A stretch of DNA of 62,068 bases from Patescibacteria group bacterium (GTDB lineage: Bacteria > Patescibacteriota > Minisyncoccia > Phycocordibacterales > Phycocordibacteraceae). The translations under genes and the position numbers were made by a program. The DNA is taken from assembly GCA_029260935.1 (NCBI GenBank), contig JAJDCJ010000015.1, positions 1 through 62,068 of the forward strand. Reading direction: 5' to 3'. Positions 1 through 25,526 of this stretch are shown here, piece after piece. How positions within the stretch are numbered: the stretch's first letter is position 1; each line of letters starts with the position of its first letter. The notes below the pieces were generated by a model, which saw only the letters and a list, made by a program, of their open reading frames with translations, was not told where the DNA came from and did not search any database.

Positions 1-117
1 CGCTCAGCCCGCTCGAGTACTCGCGGGTCCTCGCCCACCTGCCTGCCTCTTTTCTTTATTTTTTAACATCATCCCCCCGAAAACCGTTCTCTGAAGTGGA
101 AGCAGGCAGAGTGGGGC
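1..117. repeat. Left arm of long perfect inverted repeat IR-A (partner 3075-3191); outer end cut by window edge
   Basis: Bases 1-117 are the exact reverse complement of 3075-3191 (117/117 by eye). The match stops at 118/3074 on the inner side and runs off the window on the outer side. Contains the palindrome CGAGTACTCG (14-23) and the 9-mers CATCCCCCC (70-78) and AAAACCGTT (80-88), which are also present in IR-B. Confidence 0.9.
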
Positions 118-199
118 TCGGAAAAACAACGCCTCATATACCAGGCAATTGAGGTGTTTGGTGCCTAGAGTGCATGAACTCCACCGCTCGGCCATTCGG

Positions 200-221
200 C
201 CTCGGGCATTTCCGCTAGGGC
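200..221 (+). repeat. 22-nt motif CCTCGGGCATTTCCGCTAGGGC, forward copy
   Basis: A perfect inverted partner lies at 477-498. A 2-mismatch copy lies inside the recombinase CDS at 5244-5265. Confidence 0.85.
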
Positions 222-306
222 TACTCGCACCTAGTTTTCTAGGAGCACCGCTACTCCTCGCCAGTGTCGCCTGCGGGCTCCCTGTCTTCGGGCGGCACAC
301 TTTTTT

Positions 307-331
307 GGGGGAAGGACGGCATCCTTCCCCC
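307..331. other. Strong GC hairpin (10-bp perfect stem GGGGGAAGGA / TCCTTCCCCC, 5-nt loop)
   Basis: Read directly from the sequence. Lies in the GC-rich noncoding block 118-613. Confidence 0.8.
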
Positions 332-476
332 AGCGCCTCCTCGGCTCGGCAGGGCTCGCCCAACCGTCGGCGCCAACCCCCAACCTCGTTTTCATATCCA
401 TTCGCTCGTAATGTCGCTTCCGCTTCTAAAATCAGTATTTCAAAACAACAACGGCGCTCATCCATGCACACTGGCC

Positions 477-498
477 GCCCTAGCGGAAATGCCCGAGG
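477..498 (-). repeat. 22-nt motif CCTCGGGCATTTCCGCTAGGGC, reverse copy
   Basis: Exact reverse complement of 200-221. With its flanks (about 45 nt) it resembles recombinase codons RSSGISARASVYG at 5240-5278. Confidence 0.85.
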
Positions 499-540
499 AC
501 CGGAACTGCAAAACTACAGAAAACACCACTCACTGTTCAT

Positions 541-569
541 GTGCTTGCCCCACCCACCGTGCGCGCACT
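541..569 (+). repeat. 29/30-nt direct repeat GTGCTTGCCCCACCC(A/TC)CCGTGCGCGCACT, copy 1
   Basis: Near-identical copy at 3363-3392 (1 substitution plus a 1-nt indel). Confidence 0.8.
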
Positions 570-613
570 ACTCCCACACCAATGAAAGTGGAAAAGTTGG
601 TGTGTGGCTCCCG

Positions 614-763
614 TTAGATTTTCTTTTTCAACTTATCAAAATACACGTCGAGTGACAGTTCTGCCATTTTATATAAATCGCTTCTAAGTTCCTCAACTTG
701 TTCGTCTGTCATATCTAGAGAGTCTTTACCAAGATGTTGACGGCACTGTTGGATAGAGAGCAT
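614..763 (-). CDS. Hypothetical small protein, 49 aa (MLSIQQCRQHLGKDSLDMTDEQVEELRSDLYKMAELSLDVYFDKLKKKI)
   Basis: Hand-translated ATG..TAA ORF below the 60-aa cutoff. Its composition is helical and protein-like, unlike the GC-rich block next to it. No homolog recognised. Confidence 0.35.
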   Translation of the reverse strand: MLSIQQCRQHLGKDSLDMTDEQVEELRSDLYKMAELSLDVYFDKLKKKI

Positions 764-791
764 AAATTAATGTTATCACTCGGTACCATAA

Positions 792-1043
792 CTAGACAGT
801 CGAGTCTGACTTGTCTTTCTTTAAAATTGACTTAAAGAAAATGTTTACCAAAAGATAGGGTAAGCCAAAGTAAAGAATAAGAGCAATAAAAAATTCGATT
901 GCCGCTCGTAAAAGATCACTACTAAAAGCATCAAAAACGGCGTATAAGAAAAGAAAAACACCAGTCCATTTGAAAGATTTCAAAAGCCACGCTAAGTATT
1001 CAAACTTTTTTCCTTCTTTATTTGCCATGTAAAAAGTATACAC
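792..1043 (-). CDS. Small membrane protein (2 predicted TM helices)
   Basis: ORF track; hydrophobic stretches GVFLFLYAVFDAF and FFIALILYFGLPYLLVNIFF. Alternative ATG at 1028. Confidence 0.5.
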   Translation of the reverse strand: MYTFYMANKEGKKFEYLAWLLKSFKWTGVFLFLYAVFDAFSSDLLRAAIEFFIALILYFGLPYLLVNIFFKSILKKDKSDSTV

Positions 1044-1054
1044 TAGCTTTACTT

Positions 1055-1330
1055 TTAGTTTCCAGGACTATTCCAAGAATCATGTGGAATACCAATACCA
1101 TCTGAACCAAAAAGAAATTCATTGAAAGGTCCTGCCCATTGCCAATTAAATAGCCCGCTTATAATCGTCCAGACCATAAGAGCTATAAATACAACCAAAA
1201 AAATCTTATCCCACTTGCTTGAGGTGGTCCACCACCTTTTTATACTCTTCTTTATGCTCCTGAATACAGTCGATTCATCTTCAGGCACACCAAGAGTTTT
1301 ATTTTTTGGAGGTATAAATAATGATTTCAT
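1055..1330 (-). CDS. Small membrane protein (1 TM)
   Basis: ORF track 1055..1357. The internal ATG at 1330 (MKSLFIPP...) avoids overlap with the upstream gene, whose stop is at 1332. TM segment: IFLVVFIALMVWTIISGLF. Confidence 0.5.
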   Translation of the reverse strand: MKSLFIPPKNKTLGVPEDESTVFRSIKKSIKRWWTTSSKWDKIFLVVFIALMVWTIISGLFNWQWAGPFNEFLFGSDGIGIPHDSWNSPGN

Positions 1331-1331
1331 G

Positions 1332-1628
1332 TTATTTTTTGTATAAGTAAAAGCCAATAATTGCCGCTGCTACGACATCTAAAATTTGCCAAGTTTCTCG
1401 TGCGAAATAGAATGGGAATAGTGGATTGAAGAGTATTGCCGTAATTCCAAATATCCACGTCCAAGTGAATTTCTTACTCTCATAGCTTGTATACGCTATG
1501 TAAATAGCTACAGCAGTGACTACCCATCTTAATAGTTGAAAATAGAAATAGGTCCAATCTCCGAAAGCTCCTAAAAGAAAAACGATCGCAAGAATTAAAT
1601 ACCAATTTTGTTTAAGAAAGTTTTTCAT
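1332..1628 (-). CDS. Small polytopic membrane protein (3-4 TM); resembles a widespread uncharacterised small-TM family
   Basis: ORF track. The C-terminal pattern FNPLFPFYFARETWQILDVVAAAI recalls a conserved FNP..P...R..W...D motif family. This is from memory and unverified. Confidence 0.55.
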   Translation of the reverse strand: MKNFLKQNWYLILAIVFLLGAFGDWTYFYFQLLRWVVTAVAIYIAYTSYESKKFTWTWIFGITAILFNPLFPFYFARETWQILDVVAAAIIGFYLYKK

Positions 1629-1843
1629 ATACCACTTCTATGTAAGCGTGCTTGATAATTCTCAAAATCGTTCTCACTGAATGGTTTTGATAGACTTGAC
1701 AATCCTTTTCCTTTCGAGTTCAAGTATCGATCAGAGCAGTCGCTCTTAATATTTGATGGTCTGACTTGAAACCAGTAAAAGGAAAATCCTAATATTATTA
1801 GTATTATAAAAATAATATATTTGTATTGTTTTAATTTCTCCAT
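1625..1843 (-). CDS. Small membrane-anchored protein (N-terminal TM)
   Basis: ORF track; YIIFIILIILGFSFYWF. Overlaps the downstream gene by 4 nt, which suggests an operon. Confidence 0.45.
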   Translation of the reverse strand: MEKLKQYKYIIFIILIILGFSFYWFQVRPSNIKSDCSDRYLNSKGKGLSSLSKPFSENDFENYQARLHRSGI

Positions 1844-1892
1844 ATTTTCAGCATATCATTTATGGTTCCATTGAGTGTGGTATACATAAAGT

Positions 1893-2096
1893 ATGGGCTT
1901 TATTATCATAGGAGTAATTGGAATCGTTCTATCAGCAATATTGACGCAGCACTTTGTAAAAAAGAACGGACTACCCACTGAAATGACAGAACAACTTCCT
2001 GGAACAGGGGTTATTCCTAAGTGGGTGTCATTAATAAATCTAGCTGGTTGGGCTTTAATTGTTTGGGGTGTTATTAGTTTTTTTATTGGTAGTTAA
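1893..2096 (+). CDS. Small membrane protein (2 TM)
   Basis: ORF track; two hydrophobic helices. Confidence 0.5.
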   Translation: MGFIIIGVIGIVLSAILTQHFVKKNGLPTEMTEQLPGTGVIPKWVSLINLAGWALIVWGVISFFIGS

Positions 2097-2294
2097 TCTA
2101 TTATATCAAAACCCCGTCTCAATTAAATAACGAACAATTCCAATATTTATAACGCACTAAAAGAACAGAAGAAGTATTTAGAAAAAATAGAAACCAAACT
2201 TATTTATTTTTGGTTCAGGAGATATTCTACGTCACGATTCTTGGCAAAGCCCATGAAACTAACAGTACACTTCTAATTCTTGTATACTTACTTC

Positions 2295-2495
2295 ATGACC
2301 CAATCAGAATATATTGCAGCTACGGTTTCTTATTTCCTCCCCTTTTTAATAGCCCCGATAATTGTCGGGGCTATATTCTCGTTAGTAGCTTGGTTACTCA
2401 CAAAAAAACGTTCAACTAAGAAATCTATCATTTGGTTTGTAGTAGGGTTTCTACTAGCAGCCTTTGTCATCTTTTATGGGTTAAGTCTAAAATAG
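2295..2495 (+). CDS. Small membrane protein (2 TM)
   Basis: ORF track 2280..2495. First ATG at 2295, preceded by TATACT (2283-2288). The overlapping 2210..2419 frame looks less protein-like. Confidence 0.5.
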   Translation: MTQSEYIAATVSYFLPFLIAPIIVGAIFSLVAWLLTKKRSTKKSIIWFVVGFLLAAFVIFYGLSLK

Positions 2496-2513
2496 AACTT
2501 CATATAATTTAAA

Positions 2514-2729
2514 CTAAAACGACCCTTTAATCCAACCAATAAAAGCAGCTAGTAGGAGTACAATAATTAAGAATAGCCCGCCCTTCCACGTATGCAGCCT
2601 TCTGTTTTCTTTGTATAGATAAATAAAATCACGTTTTTCGTTTTGAGATTGTACTGCATCTTCCCAACGATCCTCCGCGTCCAATTGTTCGCTTTCTTCC
2701 TGAATTGCTTTCCAGTCAATTTTACCCAT
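2514..2729 (-). CDS. Small C-terminally anchored membrane protein
   Basis: ORF track. Acidic N-terminal half followed by the TM segment GGLFLIIVLLLAAFIGWI. Confidence 0.45.
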   Translation of the reverse strand: MGKIDWKAIQEESEQLDAEDRWEDAVQSQNEKRDFIYLYKENRRLHTWKGGLFLIIVLLLAAFIGWIKGSF

Positions 2730-3031
2730 TAAGACTACTTATACCAGAACATCCAACTCCTGTATACTCAATCCAATATCTATACGGAAGGCTGAAAGTT
2801 CGGAAAGCCACACTTCGGGGTCACAAATTTTCTTAGGGCTTAGTTAAGCCGCTTGTATAAAAATACCCTACTAACACATTAAAAAAGCGCGTATCTTTTA
2901 CAAGCTTATTGAATCTATTTTTAAGATTTTTTCCTTTTTCGTTTGTTACAAATGTTAAATCAGTTGTCATATTATTTCAAAAGCTTGTCTATTCAAATAA
3001 TCGCATAAAAACAGCTAAAAAGCACTATCAA

Positions 3032-3059
3032 AAACGGCTCAACTTGGGTTGAGCCGTTT
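3032..3059. terminator. Perfect 12-bp hairpin AAACGGCTCAAC-TTGG-GTTGAGCCGTTT
   Basis: Read directly from the sequence. A/T-flanked and symmetric. Shares the stem core AAACGGCTCA/TGAGCCGTTT with the hairpin at 7962-7991. Confidence 0.45.
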
Positions 3060-3074
3060 AGGGAACAAAAACCC

Positions 3075-3191
3075 GCCCCACTCTGCCTGCTTCCACTTCA
3101 GAGAACGGTTTTCGGGGGGATGATGTTAAAAAATAAAGAAAAGAGGCAGGCAGGTGGGCGAGGACCCGCGAGTACTCGAGCGGGCTGAGCG
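3075..3191. repeat. Right arm of IR-A
   Basis: Exact reverse complement of 1-117. Confidence 0.9.
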
Positions 3192-3257
3192 CCGAGTCCG
3201 CGAGGCGCGATTAGCGCGGGTTCTGTTGGAAATAGGTTCGAGCTAGGGCGTAAAGAC

Positions 3258-3350
3258 GAGCCCAAAGTAGGTTTGATTCAGAATTTCCAGAATTTTTTCT
3301 GATGGCGCGAAGCGCTTCATAGGGGGGATGAGCGGAACCAGAAACGGTTT
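3258..3350. repeat. Left arm of perfect 93-bp inverted repeat IR-B
   Basis: Exact reverse complement of 5577-5669 (93/93 by eye). Mismatches flank it immediately at 3257/5670 and 3351/5576. Confidence 0.9.
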
Positions 3351-3362
3351 AGAGAACTAGCA

Positions 3363-3392
3363 GTGCTTGCCCCACCCTCCCGTGCGCGCACT
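3363..3392 (+). repeat. Direct repeat copy 2 of 541-569
   Basis: See 541-569. Sits 12 bp inside the IR-B left arm. Confidence 0.8.
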
Positions 3393-3432
3393 GAAAACTT
3401 TCGCCGAGTATTGGTGCTCGTCGAATGACTCC

Positions 3433-4155
3433 CTATTTTAATCCGTACTGAGTTTTTATTTTCTCCATTCTTTCTTTTTCATGTTCCTGAAGGGCTCTTA
3501 TAACACGATCCACCGCAAAGGCAGGTTCTTTGTCATAGTTTGAATACATGGTAGATGCAAAATCTAGTTTTAAAATAAATAAATCAATTGTGTCCTGAAT
3601 GATTTTTAATAATGTTCTAATTTGTAATCCAGTAATTTTCACCTCTCCTTTTTTTAAATCATCATGGGCCAAAAATTTATCTCTGTATATTTTTAGATTT
3701 TTGATTACTTTTTGATTATTTTTTAAACGACGTCGAATCTTTTTGAGATCTTCAAGCGTAAGTTCCTTATAGCCACTCATAAGTTCGGGAATAAAATCTC
3801 GTCCCTGTTGATATTTAAAGAATTCCTTTTCTGAAAAAGAACTTAAGTTTTCTTGAGCAAAGTCTAAAAGCAAACCTATAGTTAAAGATTGTTTTCGGTT
3901 ACCTTCATCAAAAAACTTAGCTATTTCTATAAAAAAATAAACTCTGGCGGCCTCTTGAATTGATGTAAAAAAGTAAAGATGTTGTCCATATGTTTTCACA
4001 TTGGCTTCTGCTTTTCTTTTCCCAACTACATTAGGCGCAGCTATTTTCCTTAGCTGTTCATATATCCTAAAAGCTGCAAGAGTATGCAGATAGCGGGTTT
4101 GCAAGCTCTTTGTCCAATCAAATACTTCCTTAAAATTGTGCTGATGAGAATGCAT
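3433..4155 (-). CDS. HEPN-domain, abortive-infection-like protein (AbiU2-like guess)
   Basis: 240-aa all-helical ORF with the R-x5-H motif RDKFLAH, which fits the HEPN Rx4-6H signature. Divergent from the recombinase. Family assignment was not searched. Confidence 0.5.
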   Translation of the reverse strand: MHSHQHNFKEVFDWTKSLQTRYLHTLAAFRIYEQLRKIAAPNVVGKRKAEANVKTYGQHLYFFTSIQEAARVYFFIEIAKFFDEGNRKQSLTIGLLLDFAQENLSSFSEKEFFKYQQGRDFIPELMSGYKELTLEDLKKIRRRLKNNQKVIKNLKIYRDKFLAHDDLKKGEVKITGLQIRTLLKIIQDTIDLFILKLDFASTMYSNYDKEPAFAVDRVIRALQEHEKERMEKIKTQYGLK

Positions 4156-4171
4156 GGAAGTGAACGTATCG

Positions 4172-4177
4172 TATAAT
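4172..4177 (+). promoter_or_regulatory. TATAAT -10 box 6 nt upstream of the recombinase ATG 4184
   Basis: Exact consensus hexamer. The spacing implies a leaderless or near-leaderless transcript. Confidence 0.35.
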
Positions 4178-4183
4178 ACTATT

Positions 4184-5725
4184 ATGCGCTTTTTTCTTTA
4201 CGTCCGCAAAAGTACTGATAAGGAGGATATGCAAGTTTTGTCTATTGAAGCACAGCTTGTAGAACTGCGAGCATTGGCGAGAAAAGAGGGGATTGAGATT
4301 TCTCAAGAGTTTGTAGAAAAACAGTCCGCTAAACAACCGGGCCGTCCTATATTTAATGAAATGATGGCGCGAATACAAAAAGGCGAAGCACAGGGCATTG
4401 TGTGTTGGAAAATTGATCGCTTGGCACGTAACCCCGTCGACGGGGGACAAATACAGTGGCTTTTGCAAAGTGGCATTATTGCCCACATACAGACACATGA
4501 CCGTGCATACTACCCAACAGACAACGTGCTCATGATGTCTGTTGAGTTTGGTATGGCGAATCAGTTTATTCGAGACCTTTCTGTAAATACAGCACGCGGA
4601 CTCCGTGCCAAAGCACGACAAGGACACTTTCCCGGAACGGCACCAGTGGGATATATAAATAATCCGCGCACCAAGACAATTGCTGTTGATAGAAAGAAGT
4701 CGCCAATCATTCGTGAAGCGTTTGCACTCTACGCGCAAGGCAATTCGCGTTTTGAAGATATCGGACAGTTTCTGTTTTCAAATGGAATTAAAAGTTTATA
4801 TGGAAATCGTATACAGAAAGACCGAGTGAAATTTATCTTAAGCAATACGTTTTATTACGGCCCTTTCCAATACGGTGGGGAATGGTACGAAGGAAAACAT
4901 ACTCCAATCATTGATAGAGTCTTATTTGAAAAAGTACAAAAAGTCTTAGTAAGACGTGGACGTCGACAGTCGACAAAAAAAGAACCGCAAGCGTTGTGCG
5001 GATTACTGAAGTGTGGGGAGTGTGGCATGAGTATAACTGCCGAAGCAAAAACAAAAACACAGAAGAACGGAAACGTGCATCAGTATGTGTATTACCGATG
5101 TACTAAGAAAGGGAAGGTCTGTTCACAACCGTTTATACGAGAAGAAGAATTAACGGCTCAGTTGAAACGAGCCGTTTCTGACTTCGCCTTGCCGAAAGAG
5201 TGGGCAGAAGAAATGTTCACATTATCAGAGAAGGACGAACGGTCCTCAGGAATTTCCGCTAGGGCGTCCGTGTATGGCGCACGTGAGAAACTGGTAGAAG
5301 CTGATACAAAATTATCACGCCTTACTGACCTCTATGTTGACCAAGATATTGAGCGCGACGCTTATCTATCGAAGCGTCGCGCTTTAGTGGATGAAAAGAG
5401 GAAACTAAATGAGCAGATTGCTCGTTTAGAGGCCGATGCACATAGTTGGCTCGAACCTCTTCGTGAGTGGATACAGGAGGCTTCAATCCTAGAGGGAATA
5501 GCAAAAAGCACTACCGTAGAGACACAAAAGGTCACCGTGCAAAATATCTTCGGCTCGAACCTGTTTTTAAAGAACAAAACCGTTTCTGGTTCCGCTCATC
5601 CCCCCTATGAAGCGCTTCGCGCCATCAGAAAAAATTCTGGAAATTCTGAATCAAACCTACTTTGGGCTCCGCGGGTAGGACTCGAACCTACAACCAACTC
5701 CTTACACGTTATCCCTTATTACTAA
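4184..5725 (+). CDS. Large serine recombinase
   Basis: N-terminus FFLYVRKSTDKEDMQVLSIEAQ (catalytic Ser context) and CWKIDRLARN (resolvase domain). Recombinase domain, Zn ribbon CGLLKCGECG...YYRCTKK, then a long coiled coil. The track start at 4154 is also possible. The last ~50 codons run through IR-B and antisense into the tRNA. Confidence 0.85.
   Translation: MRFFLYVRKSTDKEDMQVLSIEAQLVELRALARKEGIEISQEFVEKQSAKQPGRPIFNEMMARIQKGEAQGIVCWKIDRLARNPVDGGQIQWLLQSGIIAHIQTHDRAYYPTDNVLMMSVEFGMANQFIRDLSVNTARGLRAKARQGHFPGTAPVGYINNPRTKTIAVDRKKSPIIREAFALYAQGNSRFEDIGQFLFSNGIKSLYGNRIQKDRVKFILSNTFYYGPFQYGGEWYEGKHTPIIDRVLFEKVQKVLVRRGRRQSTKKEPQALCGLLKCGECGMSITAEAKTKTQKNGNVHQYVYYRCTKKGKVCSQPFIREEELTAQLKRAVSDFALPKEWAEEMFTLSEKDERSSGISARASVYGAREKLVEADTKLSRLTDLYVDQDIERDAYLSKRRALVDEKRKLNEQIARLEADAHSWLEPLREWIQEASILEGIAKSTTVETQKVTVQNIFGSNLFLKNKTVSGSAHPPYEALRAIRKNSGNSESNLLWAPRVGLEPTTNSLHVIPYY
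5577..5669. repeat. Right arm of IR-B
   Basis: Exact reverse complement of 3258-3350. Contains the palindrome GAAGCGCTTC (5609-5618), AAAACCGTT (5576-5584) and CATCCCCCC (5597-5605). Confidence 0.9.
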
Positions 5726-5961
5726 GAGCGTGGACTATATCATCATCCGGTCTGGATGCGAGGCGCTTCCCCCATAAAAATGGAGTACTCCCTTTCGGGA
5801 TAGTCTCTGAACCTTTCCCGACATTTTGTTAGGACTTGGCTGCTGATTACCCTCGGCATGACCCGTTCGGGTTTCCAGCAATTCACCTCGTTTTTCAATC
5901 TGAATTCCTTCAGAAAGCTGCCTTTTGACAGGGAGCTGCTCTACCATTGAGCTACCGCGGA
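5667..5961 (-). tRNA. Intron-containing tRNA; exons 5961-5928 and 5704-5667; spliced anticodon most likely GUU (Asn)
   Basis: Minus-strand read: acceptor UCCGCGG / CCGCGGA (7 bp), D arm GCUC-AAUGGUA-GAGC, anticodon stem GCUCC/GGAGU, T arm GUAGG-UUCGAGU-CCUAC, discriminator G, no encoded CCA. The two halves are 223 nt apart. A 5' exon ending in U35 and an intron ending in G give the loop CU-GUU-AA. U1-A72 plus G73 fit bacterial tRNA-Asn. Confidence 0.8.
5705..5927 (-). ncRNA. Group I intron (IC3-like, 223 nt, no ORF) in the tRNA anticodon loop
   Basis: Contains the catalytic-core strings GUUCAGAGACUA and GAUAUAGUCC (P7/P7' as in the Tetrahymena and cyanobacterial tRNA-Leu introns). GNRA-capped hairpins CUGAA-GGAA-UUCAG and UCCC-GAAA-GGGA. 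Possible P1 CUGU/GCAG with U.G at the 5' splice site, and a terminal G before the 3' exon. Confidence 0.75.
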
Positions 5962-8997: not shown

Positions 8998-9564
8998 TTA
9001 GTCATAATCTATAAAAGTGCCGTCAGGGAGCGTTTTTTTAAGGTCTGTTGCATGGTCTATAAAGAGAACACCATTCAAATGGTCTACTTCATGTTGAAAA
9101 ATTTCTGCTAACAATTCACTACCACCACGTTGAAACTTTTTCCCGCTCGCGTCATGCGCCACCACGGTGACTTTCTCAGCACGCTCAATCGTGCCATACA
9201 CATTAGGGACCGACAGACACCCCTCTCCCGTAACAGATATTTTTTTTCGTGACGAGTTTACTATTTTTGGATTTATAAAAACTACATCAGGGTCATCATC
9301 ATTGCGCTCATTACCGGCGACCACAAAACCACGCACCGTAAAAATCCGATACGACACACCTATTTGGGGAGCGGCGATTGCAACACCAAATTCTGCACTT
9401 CTCAGTGATGCCTCCATAGCAGAAAGAATACCAGTGAGTTCTTTAGTGCCAAACAGTTCCTTTGGTACCTCAGGTGCCACCACTCTTAAAACTGGTGCAC
9501 CCGCAGTTACAATAGGGGTTGGATGTGTATCTTTCATATGAGGTAAATGTACTACATCTGGCAC
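8998..9564 (-). CDS. def: Peptide deformylase
   Basis: Motifs GVAIAAPQIG, EGCLSVP, HEVDHLNG. ATG at 9537 is an alternative start. Confidence 0.9.
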   Translation of the reverse strand: MPDVVHLPHMKDTHPTPIVTAGAPVLRVVAPEVPKELFGTKELTGILSAMEASLRSAEFGVAIAAPQIGVSYRIFTVRGFVVAGNERNDDDPDVVFINPKIVNSSRKKISVTGEGCLSVPNVYGTIERAEKVTVVAHDASGKKFQRGGSELLAEIFQHEVDHLNGVLFIDHATDLKKTLPDGTFIDYD

Positions 9565-9577
9565 GTATTTTAAATGG

Positions 9578-9600
9578 ATGTAGCTGTCCGACAGCTACAT
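9578..9600. repeat. REP-like 23-nt palindrome ATGTAGCTGTCCGACAGCTACAT
   Basis: Perfect palindrome around central C/G. One of six copies in the window. Confidence 0.9.
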
Positions 9601-9614
9601 TTTTTCCATCCCCT

Positions 9615-9655
9615 CCACCCAACATATGGACACGGCGTGTCCATATGTTGGGTGG
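9615..9655. repeat. 41-nt perfect hairpin (19-bp arms CCACCCAACATATGGACAC / GTGTCCATATGTTGGGTGG)
   Basis: Read directly from the sequence. A different palindrome family in the same spacer. Confidence 0.85.
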
Positions 9656-9744
9656 GTAACACTATAACTCACACTCTGTACGCTCTGTGTCTATACGATT
9701 TCGTCGGGGTCGACAGCACTGTGCCATTTATTGCTTACACAGAA

Positions 9745-9776
9745 ATGTAGCTGATGTAGCTGTCGGACAGCTACAT
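9745..9776. repeat. REP-like palindrome (9754-9776) preceded by a 9-nt partial duplication ATGTAGCTG
   Basis: ATGTAGCTG-ATGTAGCTGTCGGACAGCTACAT. Confidence 0.9.
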
Positions 9777-9821
9777 TTTTTCTACATTTTTCCAGCTTTC
9801 AGTTCTCCAAAAACTAGGACA

Positions 9822-9840
9822 TCGGATGTCGGACATCCGA
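9822..9840. repeat. REP-related 19-nt palindrome TCGGATGTCGGACATCCGA
   Basis: Shares the central GTCSGAC core with the 23-mer. Confidence 0.75.
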
Positions 9841-9856
9841 ATATTTATTCGTTTTT

Positions 9857-11767
9857 CTATACAATCTCGTCGGGATCAACTGAAACGTGTACTTCAGGTG
9901 GAAGTGATAAAAGCTCACCGCGGAGTGTGTGGTGAGGCCACTTTCCTGACTCAAGGCGAATAACGGCGCGTGCGATGTATCGGTTTTTTCCAATATATCG
10001 TGGTGGCAGGGGCCCAATAATTTCCCAATCTTTAAGGACGTCACGAACGATTTCGTTTGTTTTTTCAATAGCCCTTTCGGTGCCAGTCCAGGTCAGTCCA
10101 ATAAATGTAGTAAATGGTGGATAGCCAAACTGCTCACGTTCTTTTAATTCTTCTCGTATAAAGTCAGTCGGATTACCTGAGGCAAGAGCACGCATGACAG
10201 AACTGTCGGCGTTGCGCGTTTGAACGAAGAGTGGCCCTTGGGTGTGGTCGCGTAAGTAGAAAAGTGTAGTGAGTGCGTACTCATGCGCACGCCACGCCGA
10301 AATTGAAAGAAGTGAGTCAATTGAGGCGACTACTGAAAGGTCAACCGGTTCGGTCAGATACGGAAGTGCCCGCTCTGTCCCTATCAACAGTGCACCTGAT
10401 ATTTCAAAAAATTGTTTCTGTATTTTTTTCGCCTTGCTGTGTGTTGACGCATTGTCAGCCGTGATTGAAAATACCTGATACTTTTTAAATAATTTTTGCG
10501 CCTCATCAATCACTCTCTCAACACCAATACCTAAACTCACCAAATTCCAACTAGTACACTGTTTGCATGAAATATTCGCAGGCACTACCGCACCCGAGCG
10601 GTATGACATAAATACGTTCCCTTTTTCAGTTTTATGTAATGTCATTGGAGTATCACTACTAGGATCGGTAATAGGAGTGCCACAGTCATTACATACAGTC
10701 AGCGGCGCCAGTCCTTTACGTTGTGCAAAGACAAACACACGCCCACCACGTTCTAACTCTTTTCGTATAGCGTGTTCTGCCTGCTCAGTAAATACACTAA
10801 ACGGTCTCTTTTTTTTTGGTATTTGGTTTTCGGTCTCTTTTTTTCGCGCGTCAATAATACTCACGGGGGTTCTGTTTTGTGCTGAAACTTGCATACGCAT
10901 GAGCTCCTCAAGTTCGCCCCTTTGGAGTCTGTTGCGTGTGGTGACGCGCAGAGGGAAGTCAGCATAAATAATTCGTGCTCCTTGTTTTTTGGCTATATAT
11001 TCTGCCGTTATGCGCGCATCAATGGCATTCTGTTCAAACCCTCTATAGGTGCGGGCACTTTCTCTTTCAATAATATATGCACCGACGTTAGATCGTGGAA
11101 TCGCTAAGAAAGAAGGGGTAGTAACAATAAGGAGTGGTTCAGGGTCAGTCGTTGCGCGATTCCAAATAGAGAGTATTGCCTTTTTTGTTATTGAGGAAGT
11201 AATTAACACAACTTGTTCTTCAATACCGCGATGCAGTTTTTCATATAAGTTTTCAGCTTCAATACTAGTGGGTGCAATAAGGATAATTGATGTACCACGA
11301 GCAAATGCTTCGCGTGCAATGTTGCGATACATACGCACACGTTCTTCTGATTCAGCTTGAAGTACCAGTGCATCCGATGTGGTTTCAACTCTTTCTTCTG
11401 TAACGGGGGCGTTATTAATTTTATCCAAAGAGTCAGTAATAACGCTCGGTGTGAAGTGCGCAAGCAGTGCGCCAATAGGGAGTGCGTGGTAGATGGCACT
11501 ATCGCGTAATCCCTCAAGTATGGCGGAGGGAAGAACGCGCTTACTCGTTCGTGATGTTATTTTTTTAAGCGCGAAAGAGCTTTCGCGAAGTTCTTGCCGT
11601 TCCGTGCGCACATCAGTGATTGATACCACCACGGCAGGAGTTGCCTTACCGCGAACCGGCACCGTAACGACAGAGCCCACTTCAAACTTTGTTTTTGAAA
11701 AAAAGGATAGTGTTCCTTTTAAACCCCTTTTGCTCATTGGAGTAACTTGGACAACAAACATATGCAC
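9857..11767 (-). CDS. priA: Primosomal protein N' (replication restart helicase)
   Basis: 636 aa; N-terminal 3'-DNA-binding-like region, helicase core, Cys-rich Zn insertion (CNDCGTPI...CKQCTSW). Confidence 0.85.
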   Translation of the reverse strand: MHMFVVQVTPMSKRGLKGTLSFFSKTKFEVGSVVTVPVRGKATPAVVVSITDVRTERQELRESSFALKKITSRTSKRVLPSAILEGLRDSAIYHALPIGALLAHFTPSVITDSLDKINNAPVTEERVETTSDALVLQAESEERVRMYRNIAREAFARGTSIILIAPTSIEAENLYEKLHRGIEEQVVLITSSITKKAILSIWNRATTDPEPLLIVTTPSFLAIPRSNVGAYIIERESARTYRGFEQNAIDARITAEYIAKKQGARIIYADFPLRVTTRNRLQRGELEELMRMQVSAQNRTPVSIIDARKKETENQIPKKKRPFSVFTEQAEHAIRKELERGGRVFVFAQRKGLAPLTVCNDCGTPITDPSSDTPMTLHKTEKGNVFMSYRSGAVVPANISCKQCTSWNLVSLGIGVERVIDEAQKLFKKYQVFSITADNASTHSKAKKIQKQFFEISGALLIGTERALPYLTEPVDLSVVASIDSLLSISAWRAHEYALTTLFYLRDHTQGPLFVQTRNADSSVMRALASGNPTDFIREELKEREQFGYPPFTTFIGLTWTGTERAIEKTNEIVRDVLKDWEIIGPLPPRYIGKNRYIARAVIRLESGKWPHHTLRGELLSLPPEVHVSVDPDEIV

Positions 11768-11845: not shown

Positions 11846-13126
11846 ATGAATATGTTTGTAGTTGATGGGCTCTCAGGAAAAGCATCACTTTCAGGTGAGG
11901 TTTCAATTGAAGGAGCAAAAAACGCAGCGCTTCCTATTATGGCAGCGGCGCTGGTTGTGTCAGGCGAAACAGTCCTTACGAATGTTCCTGACATAGCAGA
12001 TGTTGCTTCAATGAGCACTCTTCTTGAAGGGGTGGGTGCATATGTTACCTGCAAAGACGGTCAGTGTTCAATTAGAACGCAGGATGTCAATCGTTCAGTA
12101 CTGGACCCCACCATAGCAAAATTATTACGCGCCAGTGTTTTACTTACCGGCTCAGTTCTTGCGCGAGTGGGGAAGGTGGTCTTTCCACATCCGGGTGGGT
12201 GTGTTCTCGGCTCTCGGCCCATTGATATTTTCTTAGAAGGTTTTGAAAAGTTAGGATGCACTATTTCAGAAAGGCACGATGCCTACACCATCACGGCAGA
12301 AAATGGTATTGAAGGTGGTGAAATTTTCTTCAAAACAATCTCAGTTACTGCAACTGAGACATTTATGATTGCATCAACAAAAGCAAAAGCTCCGGTCGTG
12401 CTTAAAAATTGTGCAATGGAGCCTGAAATTGTGGCAACCGCTGAATATCTAGAGGCATGTGGTGCACGCATAGAAGGCGCGGGCACATCCACTATCACCA
12501 TTCACCCCTCACATCTTGAAGCACCACCCGATCTAGTGCGTATTATTCCAGACCGTATTGAGGCGGGAAGTTTCCTTCTTCTCGGCGCACTTCTAGGAAA
12601 AAAAATAACATTACGCAACTGTGAGCCAAAACACCTTGAAGCAGTTACTGAAACACTTCGTTCAATGGGGGTTACCATTACCACCACCTTTAACACTATG
12701 TCAGTGTCTGCGCCAAGCACACTAACCGGTGTTTCTATTCGTACGCATGAATATCCTGGTTTCCCAACTGACTTACAGGCGCCGTTTGCAGTACTTCTTA
12801 CTCAGGCAAAAGGGGAAAGCTCAATACTAGAAACTGTTTTTGATGGGCGATTAAATTATCTGCAAGATCTTTCTAGTATGGGAGCTCACGCACAGGTATG
12901 GAATCCGCATAAAGCCACTATAAAAGGACCAACGCCACTCAAGGCCCGCGATATTGATGGACCTGATATTCGCGCAGGACTTGCGTTTCTGTTGGCAGCT
13001 GCTGTTGCTGAAGGAAAATCAAAAGTAGGTAACGCACACCTTATAGACCGCGGATATGAACGTATTGAAGATAAACTTGCATCTCTCGGACTTCCCATAC
13101 AGCGCATTACCCATACCCACGATTGA
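11846..13126 (+). CDS. murA: UDP-N-acetylglucosamine 1-carboxyvinyltransferase
   Basis: GAKNAALPIMAAAL, GGC.LGSRPID, typical 426-aa length. Confidence 0.9.
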   Translation: MNMFVVDGLSGKASLSGEVSIEGAKNAALPIMAAALVVSGETVLTNVPDIADVASMSTLLEGVGAYVTCKDGQCSIRTQDVNRSVLDPTIAKLLRASVLLTGSVLARVGKVVFPHPGGCVLGSRPIDIFLEGFEKLGCTISERHDAYTITAENGIEGGEIFFKTISVTATETFMIASTKAKAPVVLKNCAMEPEIVATAEYLEACGARIEGAGTSTITIHPSHLEAPPDLVRIIPDRIEAGSFLLLGALLGKKITLRNCEPKHLEAVTETLRSMGVTITTTFNTMSVSAPSTLTGVSIRTHEYPGFPTDLQAPFAVLLTQAKGESSILETVFDGRLNYLQDLSSMGAHAQVWNPHKATIKGPTPLKARDIDGPDIRAGLAFLLAAAVAEGKSKVGNAHLIDRGYERIEDKLASLGLPIQRITHTHD

Positions 13127-13196
13127 CGCCCTACATCAGTTGCAAAACACAGGCATACTCTCTTTCCACGCACTTTTGCTATACTATGCCTAACGT

Positions 13197-14213
13197 ATGA
13201 ACATGTCTTTCTTTTCTCCAAAGCTAGGGATTGACCTTGGCACCACCACTACACTGGTTTATGTGCCGGGAATTGGTGTGGTACTTAATGAACCTTCAGT
13301 TGTTGCGGTGTCCCAAAATGACCGCTCTATTTTAGCCATTGGAACTCAGGCAAAGGAAATGATTGGGCGCACTCCTGAGTCAATCATTGCGTACCGTCCC
13401 ATGAAAGACGGCGTCATTGCAGACTACCGTGTGACTGAAGCTATGCTCAAACACTATATTAAAAAGGCACTCGGCAGGTGGAACTTATTTAAGCCGGACG
13501 TTATTGTCTCGGTTCCTGCAGGTGTTACGTCAACGGAGAGACGTGCGGTTGTTGAAGCGGCACTCAGGGCGGGCGCCAAAAACGCCTTTGTTATTAAAGA
13601 GCCGATACTGGCTGCAATTGGCGCTGGTATTCCTATTCATGAACCACGTGGCTACATGATCGTTGACATAGGCGGTGGCACCACGGACGCCGCAGTTATC
13701 TCGCTCGGCGGGATCGTTGCCTCAACGTCAGTTAAATGTGCGGGCAACAGAATAGACCAATCAATCATTGATTATATTAAAAAAACATACAACCTCGCAA
13801 TCGGTGACAAGACCGCCGAGGATATTAAAATTCAGATAGGATCCGCGGTGCCTCTTGAAGAGGAACTTTCAATTACTATAAAAGGAAGAGACCTTCTGTC
13901 AGGATTACCACGGACGGCAACGGTGGAAACAAATGAAATTGTGCGCGCTATCTCCCGCAACCTCAGAGAAATGATAAAAGCAATGCGCAACGTCTTACAG
14001 GAGACACCACCGGAGCTGGCAGCCGACATTATTGACCATGGCATCATAATGACGGGTGGCACCAGTCAGCTCAGGCACTTACCTGAACTGGTTTTTCGCA
14101 GGACAGGCGTGCCGGCAACACTGGCAGATGACGCCGTCTTCTGTGTTGCCAAAGGTACCGGTATCACACTTGAGCATCTTGATGTGTATAAAAAAACGGT
14201 CACCAATAAATAA
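13197..14213 (+). CDS. mreB: Rod-shape actin homolog MreB (paralog 1)
   Basis: GIDLGTTTTLVY, NEPSVVA, MIVDIGGGTTD, MTGGTSQLR. Confidence 0.9.
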   Translation: MNMSFFSPKLGIDLGTTTTLVYVPGIGVVLNEPSVVAVSQNDRSILAIGTQAKEMIGRTPESIIAYRPMKDGVIADYRVTEAMLKHYIKKALGRWNLFKPDVIVSVPAGVTSTERRAVVEAALRAGAKNAFVIKEPILAAIGAGIPIHEPRGYMIVDIGGGTTDAAVISLGGIVASTSVKCAGNRIDQSIIDYIKKTYNLAIGDKTAEDIKIQIGSAVPLEEELSITIKGRDLLSGLPRTATVETNEIVRAISRNLREMIKAMRNVLQETPPELAADIIDHGIIMTGGTSQLRHLPELVFRRTGVPATLADDAVFCVAKGTGITLEHLDVYKKTVTNK

Positions 14214-24779: not shown

Positions 24780-24802
24780 ATGTAGCCGTCCGACAGCTAC
24801 AT
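24780..24802. repeat. REP-like palindrome (1 mismatch) abutting the RAYT stop codon
   Basis: ATGTAGCCGTCCGACAGCTACAT. Confidence 0.85.
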
Positions 24803-24805
24803 ATT

Positions 24806-25486
24806 TTATTCAAGGGTGACGGACTCTTCAACATCAAAACCTTTTAATTCGCGTGCTATGGTTTTCTTATAATTTTGCTCGCCACCGAATATTTCAAGAA
24901 AGAACTTTCGGTTCGTGACCGAAGGAAAGTTTTGAAGACCAAGATAATCGCGATGGCTTGACCAACGGTATTGTTCAAGAAACTCTATAGCCTGCTTTGG
25001 TTTGGCGGGACACTGGCGTCGCCATTCTGGGGTATGCATATCAAGCGGGTTGAAGTGAATGTAAAAAGGGATGAAGTTAAAGTGTGCCTGCGTTGTTATA
25101 GGCACCGATTTATATCCCCCTTGCCACAACGCACCCACGCGATCGTTTTTATTATTGAAATACTGGGTGTAACCTGCATTCAACTTTTTCATAAAGAGCG
25201 GAATGCCATTTTCAACAATAGGGGAGAGTAAGAGGTGATAGTGGTTCGGCATCAGTGCAAAACAATGAATATGCACCAGAAGTTCACGTTTCCGTTTTCC
25301 CCTGTTTTTAAAATGTAGCTGTCGGACAGCTACATTTTTATTAAAACGAGTAGTCCCACGAGTTCCTACGGGAGCGGTGTCATTGAATTCATACATATCG
25401 TGGATAAAGCGCAGATAATCTTTCTCATTGAGGAAAACCTTTCGTTTATCAACTCCACGGTTTAGAATATGAAAAAAATCAAGCAT
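24806..25486 (-). CDS. REP-associated tyrosine transposase (RAYT; IS200/IS605-like Y1 HUH enzyme)
   Basis: FHILNRGVDKRKVF, HUH motif LMPNHYHLLL, later Tyr-containing helix region. Flanked on both sides by the REP palindrome. Confidence 0.8.
   Translation of the reverse strand: MLDFFHILNRGVDKRKVFLNEKDYLRFIHDMYEFNDTAPVGTRGTTRFNKNVAVRQLHFKNRGKRKRELLVHIHCFALMPNHYHLLLSPIVENGIPLFMKKLNAGYTQYFNNKNDRVGALWQGGYKSVPITTQAHFNFIPFYIHFNPLDMHTPEWRRQCPAKPKQAIEFLEQYRWSSHRDYLGLQNFPSVTNRKFFLEIFGGEQNYKKTIARELKGFDVEESVTLE
25313..25335. repeat. REP-like palindrome located in frame inside the RAYT ORF
   Basis: ATGTAGCTGTCGGACAGCTACAT encodes NVAVRQLH on the minus strand. Confidence 0.9.
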
Positions 25487-25495: not shown

Positions 25496-25518
25496 ATGTA
25501 GCTGTCCGACAGCTATAT
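25496..25518. repeat. REP-like palindrome (1 mismatch) 10 nt upstream of the RAYT start
   Basis: ATGTAGCTGTCCGACAGCTATAT. Confidence 0.85.
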
Positions 25519-25526
25519 ATTAGCAG

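Follow-up and report, generated by a model that had tools for sequence, protein, structure and literature searches.

What is the segment of DNA that carries a large serine recombinase gene and a HEPN gene between perfect inverted repeats and abuts the 3′ end of an intron-containing tRNA gene in a Patescibacteria contig? The whole 62-kb stretch analyzed is called the window, and its features are listed in Table 1. An earlier note on this DNA, made from sequence alone, offered two readings: a recombinase-driven invertible switch, or a compact 2.4-kb mobile unit bounded by terminal inverted repeats (TIRs).

The two arms, b′ and b, are 93 nt long, 100% complementary and separated by a 2,226-nt spacer; the reported match of 93/93 was obtained again on re-checking. 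Besides this pair, the entire 62-kb contig contains a single inverted repeat longer than 43 nt (1–117 with 3075–3191, 100%), so the 93-bp repeat is far beyond chance. The second pair, a′ and a, adjoins the first and is absent from the earlier note. Repeat a presumably continues beyond 3191 through a conserved motif, m, up to a short core. The first 3 nt of b′ (GAG, in inverted polarity) are the last 3 nt of b (CTC), which is the core in the window. Right arm b contains a GC hairpin that is conserved with covariation across loci. As previously described, the arms enclose exactly two divergent genes.

Table 1. Features of the repeat-bearing region at the left end of the window
Feature	Position	Strand	Basis and remarks
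Distal copy a′ of second inverted repeat	1–117	.	Cut by contig start; 100% complementary to 3075–3191
Arc 1 (seg1), cargo between the two copies of the second repeat	118–3074	.	ORFs, Pfam
GC-rich (~58%) conserved noncoding element, ~400 nt	175–583	+	Just inside a′; nhmmer, RNAalifold
Proximal copy a of second inverted repeat	3075–3225	.	3075–3191 is the part matched on the contig
Motif m, T-arm-like half-site	3226–3257	-	32 nt, family-conserved; PWM
Left arm b′	3258–3350	.	Noncoding inverted copy of recombinase 3′ end
Arc 2 (AbiU2-HEPN and recombinase)	3351–5576		
30-nt motif GTGCTTGCCCCACCCTCCCGTGCGCGCACT	3362–3391	+	Second copy at 539–568, 3′ end of GC-rich element
Cargo gene, AbiU2-family HEPN protein, 240 aa	3433–4155	-	PF18734 and RDKFLAH (Rx5H)
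Large serine recombinase	4184–5725	+	513 aa from M11; ORF also possible from 4154
Right arm b	5577–5669	.	Within recombinase 3′ end; encodes ...TVSGSAHPPYEALRAIRKNSGNSESNLLWA
tRNA-Asn(GUU) 3′ exon	5663–5704	-	In-silico splicing, then ARAGORN
Group I intron, 223 nt	5705–5927	-	Inserted after U35 of the anticodon; RF00028
tRNA-Asn(GUU) 5′ exon	5928–5961	-	In-silico splicing

The assignment to the serine recombinases holds. Pfam profiles Resolvase (PF00239, E 2e-22, residues 14–157), Recombinase (PF07508, E 1e-12) and Zn_ribbon_recom (PF13408, E 2e-10) all match, and the protein has the organization of the large serine recombinase (LSR) family, with a catalytic resolvase domain bearing the nucleophilic Ser followed by the RD and then a zinc ribbon. 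In a 28-sequence recombinase alignment, R8, K9, S10, T11 and D12 are invariant, as are C272, C277, C280, C306 and C313. The likely translational start is M11 at 4184, because database protein P0001 is 513 aa long and the alignment with homologues, which places the catalytic Ser in YxRKS, begins at that residue. This start leaves an intergenic gap of 28 nt to the HEPN gene, in agreement with the 0–28 bp reported between the start codons. Homologues number 2,962 at E ≤ 1e-20; an exact look-up of the window recombinase sequence returned no record. Among solved structures, SPbeta YokA (1.9e-13) and A118 integrase (2e-8) match most closely by sequence. Identity to any phage or plasmid homologue is only ~23–31%, viral contigs contained no relative of the recombinase, and no candidate RDF was identified for it. 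The right arm does lie inside the last ~50 recombinase codons, and the last of these cross the tRNA 3′ exon in antisense and extend into the intron. The alternative C-terminal tail after a flip, ...NLLWARLYALARTYFQQNPR and a stop, was likewise reproduced.

The divergent gene encodes a HEPN protein, as proposed. It matches Pfam HEPN_AbiU2 (PF18734) over model positions 6–185 of 193 (E 2.7e-14, 53.5 bits against a cutoff of 26.8), and its translation contains the Rx4-6H motif RDKFLAH. Judged from these sequence features, this AbiU2-type cargo is probably an abortive-infection RNase. The same slot in loci L007 and L057 encodes proteins 56–61% identical to it. PADLOC gave no model match for either window protein (HEPN or recombinase).

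The convergent gene is tRNA-Asn(GUU) with a group I intron in its anticodon loop, recognized by the core fold, the splice-site bases and the fold of the spliced tRNA. Rfam RF00028 matches 5712–5941(−) at 81.4 bits (E 4e-20, gathering threshold 50), a U precedes the 5′ splice site and a G ends the intron. ARAGORN missed the tRNA in the unspliced sequence and recovered tRNA-Asn(GUU) once exons 5961–5928 and 5704–5663 were joined. Brute-force enumeration of splice sites gave ambiguous tRNA identities; the identity was settled by group I splice rules and by the homologous tRNA-Asn at the syntenic locus L003/L005. The earlier observation that the right arm ends 3 nt into this intron-containing tRNA stands, with the overlap at 5667–5669 at the tRNA 3′ end.

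Recurrence was assessed in 80 homologous loci from species-representative Patescibacteria genomes. In 46/80, the recombinase 3′ end forms the right arm of a repeat that measures at least 80 nt (median 158 nt, 93% identity), and in 32 of these 46 the repeat overlaps a convergent tRNA by 3–7 nt. Overall, 16 isoacceptors are targeted, and recombinase genes at least 90% identical in nucleotide sequence are found at different tRNAs. Within 90%-identity recombinase clusters, members share the same b arm and after the core enter different tRNAs or m′, giving tails such as HLYETARTYF, HLYSTARTIF, TLYDQVRTFF and GLYTSIRTHF. Both repeat pairs are present in L022 (OY970354.1) and in L079 (OY970175.1), each on a record titled 'chromosome: 1'. 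These two loci have in common only a′, the a/b′ region, the recombinase and b, while cargo, outer flanks and tRNAs differ. Not every family member has the duplication: in four loci (L021, L034, L053, L062), 8 kb of left flank contains neither repeat nor m.

The conserved motif just outside the left arm (3226–3257) is likewise absent from the earlier note. Motif m has the consensus CTCTATACGACCAAGTTCGAACCTATTTT across loci, the same whichever tRNA is targeted, and is found in 32 of 44 left flanks. With a position weight matrix (PWM), the copy in the window scores 36.2, close to the family median of 36.9, and is the sole site in the 62 kb. In all 32 informative loci, the GAAC of m lies 4 nt farther from the repeat boundary than the GAAC of the tRNA T-loop. 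The flank was also considered as a decayed local copy of the tRNA, a reading rejected because m does not change with the tRNA and the spacing shift is a constant 4 nt. In the A118/LI integrase, attP and attB differ by a 5-bp shift of the ZD motif (PMC3783163). The 4-nt GAAC offset may be compared with that published 5-bp shift, the ZD assignment here being by analogy. On this analogy, m is read as the P′-type half-site of an inverted attP copy. Right arm b is read as the P-type arm of attR, with the T-arm and acceptor 3′ strand of tRNA-Asn as the putative B′-type half-site. No covariation of the b arm with the T-stem of the target tRNA was seen by eye in the aligned loci.

Five loci (L005, L016, L022, L050 and L079) contain three junctions that share a 3–5-nt core; the records of two of these loci are titled as complete chromosomes. 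J1 reads X·core·m′, J2 reads m·core(inverted)·b′ and J3 reads b·core·tRNA. In each, the overlap between a and b at J2 is the core and nothing more, and the distal repeat copy begins with the core and m′. Reverse-complemented, J2 thus reads b·core·m′, which is what joining the left side of J3 to the right side of J1 by recombination would give. The core is non-palindromic (CAC/GTG) in L050, L079 and L087, where it is inverted at the left junction.

On balance, the locus is best read as an integrated composite Patescibacteria element, driven by the LSR, that uses tRNA 3′ ends as attB and consists of two arcs and two inverted attP repeats. Between arc 1, with the GC-rich element, and arc 2 would lie a long repeat in two inverted copies, each containing an attP made up of the recombinase 3′ end (b), the 3–5-nt core, the T-arm mimic m′ and the a sequence. 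The LSR would make the crossover at the core, and attP × attB integration via the recombinase-proximal copy would split that copy there. One half would become attR (b·tRNA, 5577–5669 joined to 5670) and the other attL (X·m′a′), which would start just off the contig and have its inner part at 1–117. The second attP copy would be left intact and inverted at 3075–3350. The 93-bp repeat would then consist of b from attR and its complement b′ from the intact attP, and the 117-bp repeat of a′ from attL and its complement a from that same attP. Junction J1 of the window should lie ~66–69 nt past the contig end, and for this reason the model is transferred from the other loci. The free form is presumably circular. 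The relative orientation of the arcs may switch; the simplest routes would be homologous recombination between the near-identical repeats and integration by way of one or the other attP copy. One junction is not predicted by this model, the left junction of L084, where a truncated b′ is fused to a Mur-ligase-like fragment.

Forms with intact attP copies were found. The recombinase-proximal attP is intact in L084 and L086, and both copies are intact in L067. L086 and L087 are 99.96% identical up to the core, after which L086 enters m′a′; this is not a graph mis-thread, since b-specific variants lie ~113 nt from the core, less than k=127. In L067, two complete repeat copies (m·b′ and b·m′a′) flank cargo and recombinase, and the GC-rich element directly follows a′; a cut at the recombinase-proximal core yields the order seen in the window. 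Viral-contig and metagenome searches found no closed circular contig and no empty attB site. Metagenome scans with a 24-mer from the window arm and with a predicted empty site (X-GTG-tRNA-Val, L087) gave 0 matches each and are uninformative.

The cargo-plus-recombinase arc occurs in both orientations, in related and in near-identical elements. At a tRNA-Leu(UAA)-Cys-Ser cluster in related species, L070 and L071 have it opposite to L076, L068, L069 and L017, and L084 and L012 are 99–100% identical with opposite relative arc orientation. The other arc also occurs both ways (L067 and L049). In the flipped contigs L070 and L071 the arms are 100% identical, and a wrong short-read path could account for these two.

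These orientations raise the alternative of a reversible switch, in which the LSR itself recombines m·b′ with b·tRNA around the HEPN and recombinase arc. The inner half-sites are identical, so inversion would regenerate the same two sites and need no directionality factor, and a flip would change the gene converging on the tRNA as well as the recombinase tail. Both orientations of either arc fit this scheme, as do the repeat boundary exactly at the core and the many contigs that break at the arms. The same two states are produced by integration through either attP copy, and perfect arms of 93–170 bp suffice for RecA-dependent flipping without the LSR. The half-site reading makes the pair attP-type × attR-type, and characterized LSRs normally do not synapse such pairs (PMC3783163). 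The recombinase also adjoins the tRNA in at least 44/80 assemblies, and the window contig is unbroken through both arms, so one orientation dominates there. A reversible switch is accordingly considered unlikely. The compact 2.4-kb unit of the earlier note fares worse. Its left outer flank is the family-conserved half-site m and a second repeat instead of host DNA, the backbone that moves between tRNAs covers both repeat pairs, and no direct duplication of the kind left by IS-like TIR transposons is present. The left junction and the tRNA junction have the core in opposite polarity, which fits an inverted attP copy and not the end of a TIR element. The part of that reading that survives is a recombinase-associated, mobile unit with defence-type cargo.

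A variant has two TIR elements inserted successively at the tRNA, an older non-autonomous a/a′ element and then the 2.4-kb autonomous b′/b element. In its favor, a separate near-perfect inverted repeat encloses each arc, nothing but the recombinase lies between the b arms of five loci, and the b-bounded arc is seen in either orientation. However, had b·core·b′ inserted into m·core·tRNA, the core should have one polarity at the two ends, and in L050, L079 and L087 the left junction has it inverted. Nor is b′ flanked by arbitrary host DNA; it is flanked by m in 32/44 loci, and a, m, b and the recombinase move together between different tRNAs. Arc 1 lacks a recombinase, and target-site duplication is absent. 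Core polarity and the linkage of m to b′ thus disfavor nested insertion, which is rated very improbable. A chimeric inverted duplication from the assembler or from amplification has two features in its favor, a contig that begins inside a repeat (1–117) and the perfect identity of both repeat pairs, which could come from a collapsed or duplicated graph path. It is rejected, with hardly any doubt, by the recurrence of the architecture in dozens of independent assemblies, with arms diverged to 85–99%, and on two records titled as complete chromosomes. The assemblers differ (contig names NODE_, k141_, k127_, scaffold_ and contig_), and the repeats end at positions that make biological sense, the core and the end of the tRNA.

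Returning to the composite element, its GC-rich sequence is found by nhmmer at full length in L003/L005 (same contig), L012, L028, L050, L067 and L049, and in part in L064, L030 and L054. RNAalifold predicts 78 pairs; 22 pairs are changed on both sides, against 12.7 ± 2.2 in shuffles (0/500) and 4–9 in slid controls. No Rfam family matched at E ≤ 1. The folding model makes it a candidate structured RNA of the mobile element. The 30-nt motif is 93–100% identical across at least 12 loci, among which the recombinase proteins share only ~55–70% identity; in the seven loci checked it lies at most ~100 nt inside b′. A 30–35-nt similarity between 468–502 and 5240–5273 suggested antisense control of the recombinase by the GC-rich element. 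This idea was dropped because none of the other loci checked has the copy inside the recombinase gene.

The cargo of both arcs is mainly anti-phage defence. In the window, arc 1 encodes small membrane proteins and proteins of unknown function, including a DUF6804 protein. Its equivalent elsewhere encodes GmrSD, a methyltransferase (MTase) with MvaI/BcnI, a type III restriction-modification (R-M) system, or ThiF, E2 and ubiquitin-like genes with a C5-MTase. Cargo across loci includes methyltransferases, R-M components, AbiEii/AAA_21, AAA_15, HEPN_AbiU2 (3 loci), ThsB_TIR, DUF3800, SocA_Panacea, GmrSD, MvaI/BcnI and type III R-M.

The layout recurs across ultra-small (CPR) bacteria, and no description of it was found in the literature searched. 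That search returned no account of LSRs at CPR tRNA genes or of duplicated inverted attP, and an earlier report is possible. Serine integrases catalyze unidirectional attP × attB recombination that is reversed only with an RDF. Those of phages and ICEs (A118/LI, SPbeta SprA/YokA, Bxb1, phiC31) have the same three domains and an integrase gene beside attP. They also have a short crossover core, and one motif in element and host half-sites at different distances from the center, for which the shared core and the GAAC of m and of the tRNA are the putative counterparts here. In contrast, the proposed attB is the T-arm/acceptor end of many tRNAs instead of a single particular gene, the ORF of the recombinase extends into the tRNA, a second, inverted attP region is present with near-perfect arms of 90–290 nt, and the element is small with defence cargo instead of a phage genome. 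TnpX (Tn4451/3) and TndX (Tn5397) are LSR transposases that excise to a circle and reinsert without a separate directionality factor. Their elements likewise place a large serine recombinase on a small cargo element; unlike the Patescibacteria element, they are not known to carry long terminal inverted repeats or to prefer tRNA genes.

Serine DNA invertases (Hin, Gin, Cin, Pin/PinQ) also lie beside or inside a segment bracketed by inverted repeats, and these systems are reportedly linked to phage–host interaction. Hin, Gin, Cin and Pin are small serine recombinases of ~190 aa that act on identical 26-bp sites with an enhancer and Fis. The window LSR has 513 aa with RD and ZD in place of the ~190 aa and C-terminal HTH of a small invertase. 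Its two sites are not equivalent; they are identical in their inner halves and differ systematically in their outer halves (m versus tRNA). Tyrosine-integrase islands (P4-like) share the tRNA 3′ end and hypervariable defence cargo beside the integrase. The present element has a serine recombinase, shares 3–7 nt with the tRNA instead of a 15–50-nt direct repeat, has junctions with only a 3–5-nt core in common, and has inverted instead of direct flanking repeats. The yeast 2-micron plasmid carries FLP/FRT inside 599-bp inverted repeats, and plastid inverted repeats give 'flip-flop' isomers. Both resemble the Patescibacteria element in having two unique arcs, two long inverted repeats with a recombinase target, and isomers in either orientation; on the Patescibacteria side, a circular free form and recombinase-driven flipping are putative parts of this likeness. 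The 2-micron plasmid differs in that its enzyme is a tyrosine recombinase, and the Patescibacteria element would integrate into the chromosome via one repeat copy. A bolder version, speculative and rather doubtful, is a self-contained, RDF-independent flip-flop defence island. Its second, inverted attP with identical inner arms would allow the LSR to invert either arc reversibly and/or would make the resident attP a site where defence cassettes land and are exchanged at any tRNA, with the conserved 400-nt RNA as regulator or cofactor of recombination. If true, it would represent a new LSR mode of action and a generic integrase targeting the tRNA T-arm.

If the composite model holds, these recombinases would form an LSR clade whose attB is the universal tRNA T-arm/acceptor end and whose elements carry a T-arm mimic spaced as in attP. 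Such a clade would offer a natural way to test the ZD-spacing model of att-site identity. Because tRNA genes are in every cell, the integrase could be broadly portable. The architecture would be that of a serine integrase with an inverted attP duplication, two flipping arcs and an intact attP kept after integration, which raises how the elements exit the chromosome and why the repeats stay identical. It would also explain systematic contig breaks and possible mis-joins in CPR metagenome assemblies, and would flag an unannotated covarying ~400-nt RNA-like element tied to these islands. For Patescibacteria/CPR bacteria, with their tiny genomes and poorly described mobile elements, it would represent a vehicle for defence genes.

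A large serine recombinase (LSR) gene and a HEPN gene of the AbiU2 family lie divergently between the arms (b′ left, b right) of an inverted repeat, and b stops 3 nt inside the 3′ end of a tRNA-Asn(GUU) gene. All factual elements of the earlier note's finding hold. The perfect 93-bp repeat, the two divergent genes between its arms (ORFs and Pfam profiles), the RDKFLAH motif and the intron-containing tRNA were each recovered. The recombinase assignment, for which a profile search had been proposed, was borne out by three domains, and the alternative recombinase tail, ...NLLWARLYALARTYFQQNPR followed by a stop, was reproduced. A second inverted repeat (a′ distal, a proximal), which the earlier note does not mention, lies to the left, with a 66 nt left of b′; these two pairs are the only inverted repeats longer than 43 nt in the 62,068-nt window. 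The longest contig listed for P0001, the database copy of the window recombinase, is 62068 nt, the window itself. Feature coordinates are collected in the table.

Coordinates and supporting evidence for features in the window
Feature	Position	Strand	Evidence or remark
Second inverted repeat, a′/a	1-117 / 3075-3191		100% complementary; distal copy clipped by contig start
Arc 1 (between a′ and a)	118-3074		
GC-rich element, ~400 nt	175-583	+	~75-82% nucleotide identity among loci
Motif m	3226-3257		PWM score 36.2
93-nt inverted repeat, b′/b	3258-3350 / 5577-5669		repeat search; 100% complementary; spacing 2226 nt
Arc 2 (cargo and recombinase)	3351-5576		
AbiU2-family HEPN gene	3433-4155	-	PF18734, E 2.7e-14; RDKFLAH present
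LSR gene	4154/4184-5725	+	Resolvase, Recombinase and Zn_ribbon_recom domains
Group I intron, Rfam match	5712-5941	-	81.4 bits
Palindromic-unit copies	9578-9614, 9754-9790, 24780-24816, 25313-25349, 25496-25532, 37270-37306		

LSR homologues begin at the M11 position (4184), and Ser10 in a YxRKS context and five Cys are invariant in the alignment. By its sequence, the window enzyme is a genuine LSR. Among solved structures, those of the SPbeta YokA integrase (E 1.9e-13) and of the A118 integrase (E 2e-8) are closest to it, and identity to phage and plasmid homologues is at most ~31%. A GC hairpin (e.g. CGCGGCGC-GAA-GCGCCGCG) lies at 5590-5625 within the C-terminal coding region. It is also present in the b arms of five fetched homologous loci (L005, L012, L022, L050 and L079), covaries between loci and coincides with breakpoints in the truncated b′ of L084 and in the tails of database copies P0144 and P0145.

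ARAGORN called no tRNA at the right-arm end in the window. Splicing 5961-5928 to 5704-5663 yields tRNA-Asn(GUU), with a 223-nt intron (5705-5927, minus strand) after U35; U precedes the 5′ splice site and G is the 3′ end of the intron. The same tRNA lacks the intron in a syntenic genome (L003/L005), and L007 and the P0126 tail, like the window recombinase, adjoin intron-containing tRNAs.

The window recombinase has 2962 homologues at E<=1e-20, and those named are from Patescibacteria/CPR metagenome-assembled genomes. Eighty loci were fetched from species-representative genomes and analyzed by script. An inverted repeat of 80 nt or longer with the recombinase 3′ end as its right arm was found in 46 of the 80 (median 158 nt, 93% identity), and in 32 of those 46 the arm overlaps a convergent tRNA 3′ end by 3-7 nt. 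A tRNA lies at the recombinase 3′ end in 44/80 loci. Targets comprise 16 isoacceptors (Gln, Asn, Leu, Arg, Val, Tyr, Ile, Glu, Ala, Gly), and the T-arm, translated antisense, gives the ...G(L/F/I)EP... with which called recombinase proteins end. Both repeat pairs are present in L022 (OY970354.1; 266 nt at 100% and 141 nt) and L079 (OY970175.1; 286 nt and 171 nt, both at 100%), whose records are titled 'chromosome: 1', and on the 51.9-kb scaffold carrying L087. The recurrence of the architecture in these and other loci rules out a chimeric inverted duplication produced by assembly. Many short-read contigs break off either at the 3′ end of the recombinase gene or ~k-1 nt to the left of b′, as expected where flanking sequences are repeats. 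Both the repeat and m are absent within 8 kb in L021, L034, L053 and L062. L043 contains four copies of a ~390-nt unit (m′, the reverse complement of m, plus a) at 245-653, 3142-3549, 9487-9872 and 13056-13441, which alternate in orientation and bracket three segments beside tRNA-Leu(GAG); this locus may have the same architecture with multiple arcs.

Three junctions were compared in the loci where all lie on one contig (L005, L016, L022, L050 and L079). With X as the DNA outside the left end, J1 reads X / core / m′ a′, J2 reads a m / core (inverted) / b′, and J3 reads b / core / tRNA. The core is 3-5 nt long (GCTC, TGCTC, GTG), and at J2 the overlap of repeats a and b is exactly the core in all five loci. 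In the window it is GAG at 3258-3260 and CTC at 5667-5669. Read on the opposite strand, J2 is b·core·m′, a recombinant that joins J3's left half to J1's right half. On these sequences, the relation is that predicted for attP (b·m′) × attB (X·tRNA) giving attL (X·m′) and attR (b·tRNA), plus one inverted intact attP. The 93-bp repeat would then be b of attR paired with b′ of the intact inverted attP, and the 117-bp repeat would be a′ of attL paired with a of the same attP. The LSR would catalyze exchange at the core, and the free form would be circular.

The 66 nt between a and b′ include a T-arm-like sequence, GGAAATAGGTTCGAGC. Its interpretation as a decayed copy of the local tRNA was rejected, since motif m is conserved across loci with different target tRNAs. 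The consensus of m from 33 loci is CTCTATACGACCAAGTTCGAACCTATTTT; it was found in 32/44 left flanks and occurs only once in the window. The GAAC of m is 4 nt farther from the repeat boundary than the tRNA T-loop GAAC in 32/32 informative loci (nine offset values of 10 are regex matches on the T-stem, and L064 is the lone outlier). For the A118/LI integrase, the ZD-binding motif is 5 bp nearer the center in attB than in attP (PMC3783163). By analogy with this shift, m is read as a putative P′-type half-site and the tRNA T-arm/acceptor as a B′-type half-site. The X sides at J1 have no consensus among loci with all junctions on one contig, so the tRNA half is apparently what determines attB recognition.

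Partners are exchanged at the core. Within 90%-identity recombinase clusters, one b arm is joined to differing partners beyond the core, either several tRNAs (tails such as PRVGFEPTTNSL..., GGLGLEPR... and PGVGFEPTTYSLH...) or m′ (HLYETARTYF in P0124, HLYSTARTIF in P0200, TLYDQVRTFF in P0251 and GLYTSIRTHF in P0190). Pairs of recombinase genes with 90% or more nucleotide identity adjoin different tRNAs in L053 and L062 (Arg(TCG) and Val(TAC), 93.8%), L021 and L035 (Asn and Gln, 91.7%), and L010 and L017 (Arg and Leu, 90%). L022 and L079 have in common only a′, the a/b′ region, the recombinase and b, and differ in cargo, outer flanks and tRNAs; from this pattern, the mobile part is apparently the J1-J3 backbone.

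Some forms have one attP copy, or both copies, intact. The k127 contig L086 matches L087 at 99.96% identity as far as the end of b, recombinase included, and then runs on into core, m′ and a′. The positions distinguishing b from b′ are ~113 nt from the core, less than k, so the join is backed by real k-mers. In L067 both repeat copies are complete (m/b′ left and b/m′a′ right, ~88% identity) and surround AbiEii cargo and the recombinase, with the GC-rich element directly after a′. If the L067 order is opened at the core next to the recombinase and joined to X/tRNA, the result is exactly the window order: a′, GC-rich element, arc 1, a·m/b′, cargo, recombinase, b/tRNA.

Arcs occur in both orientations. 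L084 and L012 are 99-100% identical with arc 1 reversed in L084, the orders being a′-arc 1-a·m/b′-cargo-recombinase-b/tRNA in L012 and b′(truncated)-cargo-recombinase-b/m′a′-arc 1 reversed in L084. The attP × attB model does not predict the left junction of L084, where a Mur-ligase-like fragment is fused to truncated b′. In L049 the GC-rich element is reversed and at the far end of arc 1, so arc 1 too exists in both orientations. L070 and L071, whose recombinases are 100% identical, jointly give tRNA-Leu(UAA)(+)/b′-cargo-recombinase-b/m′, which is flipped compared with L076, L068, L069 and L017, loci at that tRNA cluster; the arms of this pair are 100% identical, so a short-read path error is possible for it.

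Inversion of the arcs by the LSR itself is possible. It would pair attP with attR, and by published LSR rules (PMC3783163) these two should not synapse, so this route is less favored than two others: homologous recombination between the near-identical repeats (93-290 bp), or integration via either attP copy. A switch of the small-invertase type would also flip a segment between inverted sites, but it fails on enzyme size and on the two sites not being equivalent. The earlier note had offered a compact 2.4-kb mobile unit bounded by terminal inverted repeats. Such an autonomous transposon is disfavored, and so is a nested pair of such elements: wherever the core is non-palindromic (CAC/GTG) it is inverted at J2, m and b′ are linked, and target duplication is absent.

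Cargo was scanned in arc 2 as 76 ORFs between b′ and the recombinase in 50 loci. Matches include DNA methyltransferases and other restriction-modification components (among them HindIII and EcoRI-type), AbiEii/AAA_21, AAA_15, ResIII, ThsB_TIR, DUF3800, SocA_Panacea, and LexA/S24 and HTH regulators. HEPN_AbiU2 cargo is present in three loci, and in five loci arc 2 has the recombinase without other cargo. Arc 1 carries cargo too: GmrSD in L022, a methyltransferase with MvaI/BcnI and GmrSD_N in L079, and type III Res and Mod in L012. Arc 1 of L087 (1638-3643) encodes ThiF, a prokaryotic E2 and a multi-ubiquitin-like gene, a ubiquitin-conjugation-type set adjoining LexA/S24 and a C5 methyltransferase. 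Arc 1 of the window contains small membrane or unknown ORFs.

The GC-rich element is noncoding and adjoins the a′ arm in at least seven loci. Recombinases of loci with the conserved element are only ~54-67% protein-identical to that of the window. The fold predicted for the element comprises 78 pairs and is closed by a helix of 22 bp. Twenty-two pairs are changed on both sides, versus 12.7±2.2 in shuffles (0/500 reach 22) and 4-9 in slid controls. Invariant G-U pairs favor the plus strand. Rfam had no match to the element, a candidate new element-associated structured RNA whose secondary structure has covariation support. A 30-nt motif, GTGCTTGCCCCACCCTCCCGTGCGCGCACT, conserved at 93-100% in at least 12 loci, lies just inside b′ (3362-3391) and again in the GC-rich element, at its 3′ end (539-568). 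A stretch of the closing helix (468-502) is 88-90% complementary over 30-35 nt to 5240-5273 in the recombinase gene; this internal copy is missing from the other loci checked.

Other repeats were noted in the window. Six copies of a ~26-nt palindromic unit, ATGTAGCTGTC(C/G)GACAGCTACAT, are each followed by a T-run and look like REP-like or terminator-like intergenic repeats. In the region 36860-37442, tRNA-Glu(CUC) (36860-36932) is followed by a 25-nt direct repeat (37094-37118/37418-37442, 96%) and by a 30-nt inverted repeat (37142-37171/37298-37327) that surrounds one palindromic unit. At 33666-36745, direct repeats that have diverged (150 nt at 70%, spacing 2585), together with a 44-nt unit in four copies encoding ...CSDGIDNDGDG..., suggest tandemly duplicated genes with repeated Cys/Asp-rich modules.

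A literature search did not find this architecture, an LSR at tRNAs with duplicated inverted attP regions, described. A 2025 survey of Patescibacteria genomic islands reports defense and restriction-modification islands and does not mention recombinases or tRNAs (PMC12455944). From the sequences, the integration logic looks canonical for LSRs. The elements differ from known LSR systems in generic tRNA T-arm targeting, an ORF overlapping the tRNA, duplicated and inverted attP regions, mainly defense cargo, and the structured-RNA candidate alongside. The two-arc layout resembles that of the 2-micron plasmid. Inversion of the arcs by the LSR itself, if it occurs, would be the most novel outcome.
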